DNA from: Phoronis australis
Lineage: Eukaryota; Animalia; Phoronida
DNA length: 64,000 nucleotides
Direction: 5' to 3'
Assembly: GCA_002633005.1 (NCBI GenBank)
Contig: NMRA01000541.1
Span: 1 to 64,000, forward strand
Shown: one piece after another, positions 10,825 to 63,235 of the stretch
Layout of the letters: every line of letters begins with the position of its first letter
Position numbering within the stretch: position 1 is the stretch's first letter
The notes under the pieces: generated by a model
Seen by the model: only the letters and a program-made list of their open reading frames with translations
Database searches by the model: none
What the model was told of the DNA's origin: nothing
Made by a program: the position numbers and the translations under genes

Positions 10825-11025
10825 CTAGACCTCGGTTTCTAGTATCGAAGGACAGACGGTATAATAGTACTTTTCTGCTCCAGTCTTTTTTCGGTGAATA
10901 CGGAACTTGTTGTAAACATGGAGGACCAATCCAGGAAAGAGATTTGTGATGTACCGCATTAATCTTTCTTTAGTCCCGCCGAAGACTTTTTTTATCCGAG
11001 ACTCCAACTCTTCGAAGTGGTTCCT
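10825..11025 (-). CDS. Terminal coding exon G (KEN catalytic His and C-terminus: RNHFEELESRIKKVFGGTKERLMRYITNLFPGLVLHVYNKF...ETEV*)
   Basis: Acceptor cctattttcag|AGG; 201 nt ending in TAG. Aligns to IRE1 KHHYRELPAEVRETLG...[14 protein letters not shown] and RNase L FPDLVIYVY. Confidence 0.92.
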   Translation of the reverse strand, partial: RNHFEELESRIKKVFGGTKERLMRYITNLFPGLVLHVYNKFRIHRKKTGAEKYYYTVCPSILETEV

Positions 11026-62000: not shown

Positions 62001-63235
62001 GGCTCAGTATAAACTGGATTATGGTTAGCTTTGCCTCAATGAATTGTAGAGGTCTAGGAGACTTAGCAAAGCGTAGATGTGGTCCACTTTCTAAGAGAAA
62101 GTCTTGTATTTACTGCCTCCGGGCACTCACTTCACCAAAGAAGAAACGAAATAAGTTCGTTCCACCTGGGAATATGATATAATGGTGAGCCTAGGAATAC
62201 GAGACTCGCGTGGTGTGTGCATTCTTTTTAATAGAAACTTTGAATATGAAGTCAACTCCAAAAAATAGATTCGGATGGTAATCTGGTTGCCACGGAAGTC
62301 TTAATTGAGAACAATTATCTAGTATATCTGATAAATTTGTACGGTCCAAACAGAGACAAAGAAGTTTCCTTGATGGATAAAATCCGTCAGAACGAGTTTC
62401 TTTTGTCACAGACACACGTAAGGACGACATTTTGATGTAACAACTGACGAGAACCTCGAAAACTTCCATTTACAGAATGCAAATTTTATATGCTAATAAG
62501 GGAGCACTTGACTACTGCGCCGTCTATACATCGGCGGAAAAGCTTAAATACCCGTGACTGCGTGTGGGGAAATTGCGATTGTGTGCGCTGAAGTCGATAT
62601 TTTCAAAGTACAATTATACCACAGTTTAAGGTTGCAAAGTGAGTTTTTTTGATATGCTTCGATTATATAGAAAAATCTTTACTCTCTCAGACGAAATCAT
62701 CTGTGTTCTTTTAAATGAAAATTAACTCCTGAAATTAGTCCGGGGAAGGAGACCAAAAGCGGCAGTTTAGCTACATGTAGTTCTCCGTTCCTGGTTATCT
62801 CTTCTTTGTATTATTAGCTTGTGTACCACATGGAGAGTGGTCGACACGGTTATGATACATATTAGTGTTTGTGTGTAAACGTTTAATGTTGGAAGATTCA
62901 TTAAATATTGTTCTTTTATTTGTTTTTTTCCTACTAAATTTTCTGATTAAAGTCACGTTAATAAGGGTTTTACTTGTAATAATTAGTGGTTAATAAGTAT
63001 ATTAACCGGATTTAATCATTGTCTCTCCATCAAGACAAAATCACAAAAATAGCAACCTTTCAAACAAACGTACCATCAAATTCTGACCAATACTATATGT
63101 AGCAAAAATATCAGAGAAAACGCTGTTATTCGTACCTTCACCTTCGCCATGTTTCTTGGAAATGAAATCGATCAAATCTCTCAAAACGTCTACGTATTTC
63201 AACTTCTTGCACGTTTCTAAGGTACCTTCGTACAC
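10825..63235 (-). CDS. IRE1-like: 5'-incomplete 7-exon gene encoding an IRE1-family pseudokinase + KEN ribonuclease (318 aa visible); join of 63136-63235, 54287-54477, 51087-51186, 33352-33485, 17281-17401, 11231-11340, 10825-11025
   Basis: All six introns are GT-AG with compatible phases (1,0,1,0,1,0), giving 957 nt of open frame ending in TAG at 10825. The assembled protein has [60 protein letters not shown] and FPGLVLHVY. These are collinear with human IRE1 as recalled: [69 protein letters not shown]. Confidence 0.9.
11231..11340 (-). CDS. Exon F (KEN: DFYQKHGTKVKGDELQEMLRLGKSNNVTGLVIFMRNK)
   Basis: Acceptor tttttgggttacag|AT, donor AAG|gtacag; 110 nt. NVTGLVIFMRNK matches IRE1 SVRDLLRAMRNK. 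Confidence 0.9.
13526..16954. mobile_element. Non-autonomous DNA transposon (3.4 kb) with about 55-bp TIRs and CCGACC subterminal repeats
   Basis: CAGCACACATCACGAATTTTTGTCCGACCGGTAGGAAATTGGTCGACGACCGGC at 13526 is matched by a near-perfect reverse complement ending at 16954. TA flanks both ends. No transposase ORF is visible. Confidence 0.75.
17281..17401 (-). CDS. Exon E (KEN N-terminal part: EVSPWVNGKKHASGKAASDINKSDGVIEDWRTEFLCELEN)
   Basis: Acceptor ttcttttatacag|GAA, donor ATG|gtacag; 121 nt, phase 0 to phase 1. EVS...DWR aligns with IRE1 DVS...DWR (40 vs 41 aa). Confidence 0.87.
21130..24416 (-). mobile_element. Nested non-autonomous gag-only LTR retroelement (3.3 kb)
   Basis: 257-bp LTRs at 21130-21386 and 24160-24416 (TGTTG...CAACA, about 10 mismatches counted). 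PBS TGGCGTAGT (tRNA-Ser-like) follows the 5' LTR; polypurine tract AGGGAGGGGAGGAA at 21387-21400. Imperfect 4-bp TSD GGAC/TGAC. No pol. Confidence 0.9.
21957..23891 (-). CDS. gag: Gag-like protein: HhH-like N-terminus (one in-frame TAA at 23784-23786), capsid domain, coiled coil, CCHC zinc knuckle
   Basis: The 602-aa ORF 21957-23765 contains WEDFLWKF..W...LEGDASRWF, QTSDESLEQWADRL and CFKCGKLGHYQSAC. An in-frame upstream ATG at 23891 reads MASKILINSCDATTLLGLPGMTTDVAAAVMDFRAI* and then continues into the ORF. Confidence 0.85.
28851..30690. mobile_element. Non-autonomous DNA transposon with long imperfect TIRs
   Basis: About 28851-29150 is an imperfect reverse complement of about 30400-30690 (TCACCTACCATTG / CAATGGTAGGTGA; TTTCAAGTTTATTTCATT / AATGAAATAAACTTGAAA). 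Internal repeats TAGTAACTCT.GACACCA at about 29217 and 29469, inverted at about 30315-30335. Confidence 0.65.
31502..32404 (+). mobile_element. Solo LTR (903 bp) of the same family as the Gmr1-type element, opposite orientation
   Basis: TGTCA...TGACA termini with perfect TSD ATCGT (31497-31501 and 32405-32409). Reverse-complement homology to 25611-26506 along its length. Confidence 0.9.
32488..33293. mobile_element. MITE with short TIRs (hAT-like termini)
   Basis: Ends CAGGGCTCGAC ... GTCGAGCCCAG, with TGCGAC-type subterminal repeats at both ends. Flanks CTTAT/CTTAC; no clean 8-bp TSD. Confidence 0.6.
33352..33485 (-). CDS. Exon D (kinase subdomain XI and start of KEN: [44 protein letters not shown])
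   Basis: Acceptor cattttttgtag|GT, donor GCG|gtttgt; 134 nt. Near residue-for-residue match to IRE1 [44 protein letters not shown]. Confidence 0.93.
34244..38560 (-). mobile_element. Partial, inverted second copy of the CMC/EnSpm-like palindromic-array element (interrupted at 34265-36466)
   Basis: CCCTTACAAAAATGAAC at 34244 continues as TTAAGTTTTTC at 36467, followed by an AAAACTTAAGTTTT array at 36470-36960. About 36700-37960 is a diverged reverse complement of about 43600-44950. The right boundary is uncertain. Confidence 0.65.
34265..36466 (-). mobile_element. Kolobok-like DNA transposon remnant (possibly composite) with a THAP-domain fragment
   Basis: Bounded by CTAA|AG... and ...CT|TTAA (TTAA target, AG termini). 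The minus-strand ORF 36030-36215 encodes MPLCVVCGCSN...HLHNFP...RAW, a THAP N-terminus. The insertion splits a terminus of the palindromic-array element. Confidence 0.6.
38608..40662 (-). mobile_element. 5'-truncated L1/Tx1-clade LINE (ORF2 RT and C-terminal zinc finger, frameshifted)
   Basis: Motifs RGCRQGDPLSPYVF, QYADDTT, WNNKVERVKRDVL and CTFCHSQSETVDHIFFEC. ATTAAA followed by an A-tail on the minus strand at about 38608-38624. Confidence 0.92.
41514..41620. mobile_element. Second (inverted) copy of the MITE family at 10305-10455
   Basis: Contains TCTCACGTAATCTCGCGAAGTC and ends in TTACTGAAC, reverse-complementary to the 10305-10455 copy. Confidence 0.55.
41708..45024. mobile_element. 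Non-autonomous CMC/EnSpm-like DNA transposon with palindromic subterminal arrays
   Basis: TIR CCCTTACAAAAATGAACTTAAGTTTT at 41708 and its exact reverse complement ending at 45024, with a 2-bp TG duplication on both sides. Arrays of AAAACTTAAGTTTT at 41720-42200 and 44770-45010. Spans the assembly gap. Confidence 0.75.
43051..43538. other. Assembly gap (488 N)
   Basis: Run of N. Confidence 1.
47930..48330 (+). mobile_element. L1/Tx1 ORF2 3' remnant
   Basis: TFCNSESKDLVQLYWSCTMVKNFW resembles the C-terminal zinc finger seen at 38735-39121. Confidence 0.6.
49562..50278. repeat. Tandem repeat, about 146-bp unit, about 5 copies
   Basis: ACACCTT anchors at 49635, 49785, 49931, 50077 and 50223 (spacing 150, 146, 146, 146), with conserved TGATCTTATTCTACTGG and ACATGTAAA blocks. 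Confidence 0.9.
50279..50455. mobile_element. Isolated terminus of the CMC/EnSpm-like palindromic-array family
   Basis: TCCTTACAAAAATGAACTTAAGTTTT followed by AACTTAAGTT repeats. Confidence 0.7.
50455..50831 (-). mobile_element. Partial LTR (U3 side) of the 6735-7454 family
   Basis: Ends ...TCTGACA at 50831 (TGTCAGA on the minus strand). Reverse-complement homology to about 6735-7100, including TATAAA and the TTCTAGAA motifs; contains (AAAAC)n. Confidence 0.75.
51087..51186 (-). CDS. Exon C (kinase alphaF: [33 protein letters not shown])
   Basis: Acceptor ctctcttccag|ACC, donor GCA|gtgagt; 100 nt, phase 0 to phase 1. DIFAAG matches the subdomain IX DIFSAG motif. Too short for the ORF track. 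Confidence 0.88.
52080..53950 (-). mobile_element. Possible highly degraded PIF/Harbinger transposase remnant
   Basis: Scattered motif echoes in the expected order: RILRDRSSRLEVF, FKWP, IDGK, LSNAAG, LGDFPSYP. Alignment is weak and by eye only. Confidence 0.35.
54287..54477 (-). CDS. Exon B (catalytic loop, degenerate DFG position, activation segment, APE)
   Basis: Acceptor tttatttttatag|TA, donor CTA|gtaagg; 191 nt. Encodes (V)[63 protein letters not shown]. Confidence 0.92.
57400..57980. repeat. Diverged tandem repeat, about 200-260-bp unit, about 3 copies
   Basis: A TCTAA..CCAGTGA..TGGYTCAA...TGTTAAC..TTCAAAA..CAGGTGA.CTC block recurs near 57421, 57680 and 57881. Confidence 0.6.
60310..62400 (+). 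mobile_element. 5' part of an L1/Tx1-like LINE (decayed ORF1 and start of ORF2 endonuclease)
   Basis: ORF1 coiled coil followed by RYSLRNC..INGV.E, ENTDD, DISRIHRLG, RPIIVKFVSY, VFVNENLTKRR and CWTFDG. APE endonuclease start MNCRGL at about 62039 and RGVCILF at about 62208. Multiple stops. Confidence 0.85.
63136..63235 (-). CDS. Exon A of the IRE1-like gene (kinase hinge to alphaE: VYEGTLETCKKLKYVDVLRDLIDFISKKHGEGE)
   Basis: Acceptor ttttattgcag|GTG, donor GAAG|gtacga; 100 nt, ends in phase 1. Splicing to exon B gives H-G-E-G-E-V-H, the same spacing as IRE1 H-S-L-N-I-V-H. Confidence 0.8.

Follow-up and report, generated by a model that had tools for sequence, protein, structure and literature searches.

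A diverged IRE1 duplicate with a predicted pseudokinase lobe and a KEN RNase domain in Phoronis australis

The known systems closest to the gene analysed here, found on the minus strand of a 64,000-nucleotide stretch of the Phoronis australis genome (contig NMRA01000541.1, positions 1 to 64,000; the window), are IRE1 and RNase L. In yeast Ire1 the RNase residue H1061 is worth at least 3e5-fold and the hydroxyl of Y1043 about 10-fold, the phosphate is held by R1056 and N1057, the helix-loop element binds RNA in trans across the back-to-back dimer and a single His per dimer is sufficient (PMC3149027). Kinase-dead Ire1 retains RNA cleavage, and D828A abolishes the response to ADP-Mg (PMC3158555). 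RNase L is a pseudokinase that retains canonical nucleotide and cation binding (PMC4718504). Ten clades of RNase homologues, most with a kinase domain and some with independently gained ankyrins, were described by Chu et al. 2023 (PMC10400998), and solo KEN expansions are found in Oikopleura and monocots (Anantharaman et al. 2013, PMC3710099). As far as these texts go, an architecture of this kind, in kinase-RNase clades other than RNase L, is already in print and the Phoronis gene is a new variant of it; the clades of Chu et al. may already include its own. A literature search whose coverage left out most subscription papers found none on an invertebrate pseudokinase-KEN protein.

The gene is tentatively interpreted as a diverged, intron-preserving duplicate of IRE1 with a dead kinase lobe, a KEN domain that is likely a dimer-activated ribonuclease, an unseen N-terminal switch and possibly a part in defence. 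An earlier note on the window, made from its letters, had drawn attention to this locus, and its claims are taken up where the evidence bears on them.

Gene structure and descent from IRE1

Seven minus-strand exons, running from 63235 to 10825, were rebuilt by motif search and splice-site scan independently of the exon list in the earlier note, which had described seven exons joined in phase without stops; the same seven were recovered. All six introns are GT-AG, with phases 1,0,1,0,1,0, and the spliced frame comprises 318 codons with a terminal TAG and no internal stop, the alternative frames carrying 21 and 23 stops. The protein has a kinase C-lobe followed directly by a KEN (PF06479) RNase domain. 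The note had read it in the same way, and the profile searches that it proposed agree: Pfam, exon by exon, returns Ribonuc_2-5A for exon 7 (E=2.7e-8, 34.4 bits, cut-off 23.3) and the C-terminus of Pkinase for exon 4 (E=5.6e-4), with no kinase or KEN family match for the other five exons taken singly. Against a profile built from 12 canonical IRE1 rows the spliced protein scores 132 bits (E=1.4e-39), the top of 1000 shuffles being 7.9. Exon 1 begins with an acceptor and has no start codon, which puts the N-lobe and the N-terminus past position 64000. Exon 2 alone has no match in Pfam or the PDB; its nearest features in the ESM Atlas are generic protein kinase clusters (best 0.90), which is taken as a lead.

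The position of the introns links the gene to IRE1. A metagenome motif scan returned 106 loci, about 40 of them matching IRE1, and one (L017) is canonical IRE1, scoring 494 bits against human IRE1 structures. Introns were called with a simple script in 10 hand-picked intron-bearing loci, about five single calls that were visibly wrong being ignored. All six introns of the gene are phase-matched to canonical IRE1 introns. Five coincide to the codon (before the catalytic-loop His, before helix F, between FFQ and DVSD, at an Asp 11 residues past the DW motif, and between RNK and KHH) and the sixth, which falls in a gappy loop, is at most 2-3 codons off. Each is present in four to seven of the ten loci. 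Locus L032 carries all six in the phases of the model, plus an intron where exon 1 of the model starts; the length and both boundaries of exon 1 agree with its matching exon, while sequence similarity of exon 1 to IRE1 is weak. These shared positions and phases show that the gene is a DNA-level duplicate of IRE1.

The PDB matches are led by IRE1, which comes first for exon 4 at 35.8 bits (other kinases reach at most 21.9) and heads the 14 matches of exon 7. Together with the introns they bear out the description of the gene as an IRE1-derived paralogue. The IRE1-type segments noticed earlier are also real: MADQNGRHK and VLKHPFF are both present, and 56 residues separate the catalytic-loop His from APE, as in human IRE1. 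Identity to 12 canonical IRE1 rows is 26-33%, against 43-84% for these rows among themselves, and the branch of the gene in the tree measures 2.98 against 0.07-0.75 for canonical IRE1s, in keeping with the view that it is too divergent to be the housekeeping IRE1. Identities and tree refer to those 12 rows, after removal of three near-duplicate rows and of rows with fewer than 170 residues, and the tree contains neither RNase L nor an outgroup. A pairing in the tree with locus L041 (support 81) was set aside as long-branch attraction. A canonical-looking IRE1 frame at L004:2-3868 has a low-complexity extension of about 350 residues after its KEN domain.

The window has a GC content of 38.7% and a CpG ratio of 0.80, which fits an invertebrate rather than a vertebrate genome and is not proof of it. 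Membership of the RNase L lineage, or a sister relation to it, in place of an independent origin from IRE1, would accord with the shared pseudokinase and KEN architecture and with a tree that contained no RNase L sequence. It is very unlikely: the CpG ratio is unlike that of a vertebrate genome, and the PDB matches are IRE1-led, with RNase L neither among the 14 of exon 7 nor among the 60 listed of 234 for exon 4. A canonical KEN, used as control, reaches 141 bits against IRE1 and 15 bits against RNase L. In addition, RNase L keeps canonical nucleotide binding (PMC4718504) and is reported in jawed vertebrates only (PMC10400998).

Active sites, expressed copy and possible function

Motif names in the kinase lobe (HRD, DFG, APE, subdomain XI) follow standard nomenclature. 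HRD is replaced by HGE, with the Lys and Asn downstream of it retained, and DFG by WSK, with loss of the DFG Asp, which is taken here to be Ire1 D828. Both aspartates of the active kinase of canonical IRE1 are thus missing, and the C-lobe is predicted to be a pseudokinase that has lost its catalytic and magnesium-binding aspartates. The fold residues APE, helix-F Asp and subdomain XI Arg are retained, and identity is higher at IRE1-conserved columns (26/56) than at variable ones (12/46; p=0.04). Loss of the kinase catalytic motifs, as stated in the earlier note, holds for HRD and DFG; the glycine loop and the VAIK lysine belong to the N-lobe, outside the window. Near helix G, in exon 3, the protein is about 13 residues short relative to IRE1. 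Intron 3 contains an assembly gap (43051-43538, 488 bases) that could conceal a small exon at this place.

The KEN domain retains R250, N251 and H255, equivalent to R1056, N1057 and H1061 of yeast Ire1. RNKRNH conforms to the R-polar-x3-H motif of HEPN/KEN domains (defined in PMC3710099). The catalytic Tyr position is occupied by Gly237, 13 residues ahead of the Arg, the same spacing as between Y1043 and R1056. The RNase motif said to be kept is therefore kept in Arg, Asn and His and not in Tyr, and the full canonical IRE1 site of Tyr, Arg, Asn and His is incomplete. The helix-loop element, which forms the RNA-binding loop, carries a 14-residue insert. Identity amounts to 21 of 42 IRE1-conserved columns against 7 of 46 variable ones (p=0.0006), a bias that, together with that of the kinase lobe, shows long selection on the fold.

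Four RNA runs that carry the same species label (X1-X4) were mapped to 10500-26500 with an identity cut-off of 92%. The exon 6-7 junction is crossed by 54 reads in X1 and 50 in X2, the intron ends reading CT..AC on the plus strand. A skip of 5940 nt, the model intron between exons 5 and 6, occurs in 16 (X1) and 10 (X2) reads, its mapped position being shifted by 3 nt, probably an effect of mismatches between reads and window at this site. Read depth over exon 7 reaches 108 and 67 in the two runs, expression is roughly 35-50 reads per kilobase per million, and nearly all reads have one orientation, as would be the case for minus-strand RNA in a standard stranded library. RNA reads that connect exon 6 to 17281 led to the rejection of a candidate exon at 26250-26184. 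X3 and X4 gave no such reads at 10500-26500, a silence for which the tissue, the condition, a missing gene or an allele below the cut-off may be responsible.

The RNA copy is about 93% identical to the window copy: the expressed RNA is that of a close allele or paralogue. The listed sites comprise at least 20 substitutions over about 96 codons, with 13 residue-changing and 2 silent codons. Changes concentrate in the insert and in the C-terminal tail. Just one of the 13 amino-acid differences falls within residues 237-294 (p=0.0005 for a spared run that long) and none at 19 IRE1-conserved positions (p=0.046). The R, N and H of the HEPN motif are identical in the RNA copy, and no stop or frameshift is found among the listed differences, over about 96 codons at 7% divergence. 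In the 3' untranslated region (UTR) the reads show 4 substitutions and a 3-nt insertion, and at 10699 they depart from the window sequence. Past this point they continue with sequence matching 8966-8985, within a remnant of a long interspersed element (LINE). The ends of this jump are not GT-AG, which suggests that about 1.7 kb (window 8961-10699) is missing from the expressed copy or that its LINE junction differs.

In the preferred reading the dead kinase would act as a dimer scaffold and the His/Arg/Asn site would cut RNA under the control of an unseen N-terminal module, rather than of autophosphorylation, phosphorylation or ADP-Mg. The missing Tyr and the insert in the loop may alter the rate and direct the choice of substrate away from XBP1 splicing, and the rapid surface change may reflect a role in conflict. 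The sole observations that point to a possible defence role are the variable rim of the protein and its patchy expression. If active, the protein would be an example of a KEN RNase that needs neither the catalytic Tyr nor nucleotide binding. A pseudokinase-KEN gene with an expressed close copy and IRE1 introns would indicate that a latent RNase effector can re-arise from a stress sensor.

Several observations, on the active site, the reads, the substitutions and the relatives, weigh against this reading. Replacement of the catalytic Tyr by Gly is more severe than Y1043F. This loss, the 14-residue insert beside the active site and the change of 21 of the 42 KEN-conserved residues would suit a weak enzyme or double pseudo-enzyme whose role is to regulate IRE1 or to bind RNA through heterodimers and which does not cut alone; in yeast Ire1 a single His per dimer is enough, with the loop acting in trans (PMC3149027). 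Such a protein is distinctly unlikely, as the R, N and H of the HEPN motif have persisted through some 3 substitutions per site and are the same in the RNA copy.

Read support, which the earlier note had called for, extends to the last two of the six junctions: within the mapped region exons 5-6 and 6-7 are supported in two of the four runs, from the close copy, and junctions 1-4 have no read support. None of the reads agrees with the window copy at any listed coding site, so expression attaches to the close copy and not to the window copy itself. The ratio of non-synonymous to synonymous rates (dN/dS) is about 1.0 (15.5 non-synonymous and 4.5 synonymous changes at the listed sites), which is also expected of neutral drift; a value of 0.2 or less is rejected (p=0.0004) and one above 1 is not supported. 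Since the RNase core is spared at a dN/dS of about 1, the two copies show a conserved core with a variable rim rather than plain purifying selection. The purifying selection claimed earlier is thus seen in changes that avoid the catalytic core and not in the overall ratio, of a value which the note had itself listed beforehand as contradicting its interpretation. The window copy could also be a recently relaxed or decaying duplicate whose open frame reflects past function, as would be in line with this dN/dS, with the absence of the window allele from reads at the listed coding sites, with transposon-filled introns and with the structural difference in the 3' region. Decay is quite improbable in view of 318 codons without stop or frameshift, canonical splice sites at all six introns, a likewise undisrupted RNA copy (none listed over about 96 codons at 7% divergence) and changes that spare the core.

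The searches for relatives, all with short queries, turned up no close one from which long-term conservation could be read. When exons 2, 7 and 4 were compared with longer proteins by word-indexed search, 0, 18 and 2 candidates came up and none reached E<=10, which is weak evidence. Phmmer with exon 7 against 1.84 billion representatives gave no match at E<=0.001, in a setting where this 66-residue query scores even IRE1 at about 22 bits and relatives under about 40% identity are missed. Exon 7 found nothing in the ESM Atlas and matched none of the viral contigs searched.

Nothing in the data analysed ties the gene to infection. It is unlikely that the gene is an invertebrate RNase L-like antiviral effector built independently from an IRE1 duplicate. 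Such an effector would combine a nucleotide-independent pseudokinase scaffold, a Tyr-less KEN site and a new front sensor, viral conflict having shaped its highly divergent alleles or paralogues, and it might provide the output so far missing for OAS or cGAS-like enzymes of invertebrates. Many invertebrates carry OAS genes and lack RNase L, a combination described in 12 non-vertebrate animals (Hu et al., PMC6307210); in Aplysia both OAS and RNase L are reported absent (PMC9334734).

A somewhat unlikely alternative is a paralogue anchored in the endoplasmic reticulum, with the luminal sensor and transmembrane helix of IRE1, a dead kinase and a tissue-specific role in the unfolded-protein response or mRNA decay. 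A DNA-level duplicate would carry copies of the upstream exons by default, expression in two of the three raw-read runs fits tissue restriction, and kinase-dead Ire1 still cuts RNA (PMC3158555). A branch of 2.98 against 0.07-0.75 and the high amino-acid turnover between copies are, however, unusual for a homeostatic sensor, and the loop that recognises stem-loops is remodelled.

Feature coordinates and intron contents

Exons of the pseudokinase-KEN gene and the adjoining 3' UTR, in window positions
Feature	Position	Strand	Basis
Exon 1 (internal; helices D-E region of kinase fold)	63136..63235	-	AG acceptor, GT donor, phase 0 in/1 out
Exon 2 (catalytic loop, DFG-equivalent, activation segment, APE)	54287..54477	-	Splice sites, alignment
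Exon 3 (helix F, DIF motif retained)	51087..51186	-	First-ranked candidate of splice scan; alignment
Exon 4 (helices H-I, subdomain XI Arg, VLKHPFF, KEN start)	33352..33485	-	Pfam Pkinase; PDB IRE1
Exon 5 (first KEN helices, DW motif)	17281..17401	-	Splice scan; RNA reads
Exon 6 (helix-loop element with 14-residue insert, Gly237, R250-N251-K252)	11231..11340	-	Alignment; RNA reads
Exon 7 (catalytic His255, C-terminal KEN helices, stop)	10825..11025	-	Pfam, PDB, RNA reads
3' UTR common to window and expressed copy	10699..10824	-	RNA reads

The statement that every surrounding transposon frame has decayed does not hold. Intron 4 contains an element at 21130-24417 with 258-bp long terminal repeats (LTRs; 21130-21387 and 24160-24417) that are 96% identical and enclose an open gag-like frame of 608 codons with a zinc knuckle (21957-23783, minus strand). 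The element has no pol and is nested in an older, broken gypsy-like element (reverse transcriptase piece at 19411-19767). Reads of related copies of the LTR element fall on both strands. A broken LINE with a zf-RVT domain occupies 38735-40827 of intron 3 on the minus strand. The window also has a tandem repeat at 49565-50277, with units of about 145 bp, and a pair of 0.9-kb inverted repeats that are 80% identical (25611-26506 and 31502-32404), part of which recurs as a third copy at 18385-18780.

Comparison with known systems

The gene shares with IRE1/ERN1 the order of kinase C-lobe and KEN domain, the phases of six introns, VLKHPFF, the DW and RNK..H motifs and the 56-residue spacing from His to APE, and IRE1 provides its best PDB and Pfam matches. 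It differs in having HGE for HRD, WSK for DFG and Gly for Tyr, a 14-residue loop insert and about 13 residues fewer near helix G. Any counterpart of the luminal sensor and transmembrane helix of IRE1 would be encoded past position 64000.

Like RNase L, it couples a kinase fold devoid of catalytic function to a KEN RNase and has a non-canonical C-lobe; rapid evolution is reported for RNase L (PMC10400998). In contrast to RNase L, the gene is nearer to IRE1 in sequence and has lost the Mg-binding Asp that nucleotide binding by RNase L needs. The ankyrin 2-5A sensor of RNase L has no counterpart in the window, which ends before the N-terminus of the gene. Convergence on the RNase L architecture, as proposed in the earlier note, is thus seen in the pseudokinase and KEN layout and fails at the DFG Asp, a further point on the adverse side. 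The clades of Chu et al. (PMC10400998) and Anantharaman et al. (PMC3710099) resemble the gene in being KEN homologues outside IRE1 orthologues and RNase L; the text compared gives neither function nor pseudokinase status for them.

A pseudokinase with canonical nucleotide binding, as RNase L is defined, does not match a protein with Trp at the DFG Asp position, judged at the sequence level. In layout the gene is closest to RNase L and in its descent it belongs with IRE1. Because it lacks an active kinase, the four-residue RNase site and the DFG Asp, it is placed, on its predicted protein, outside both as they are defined.

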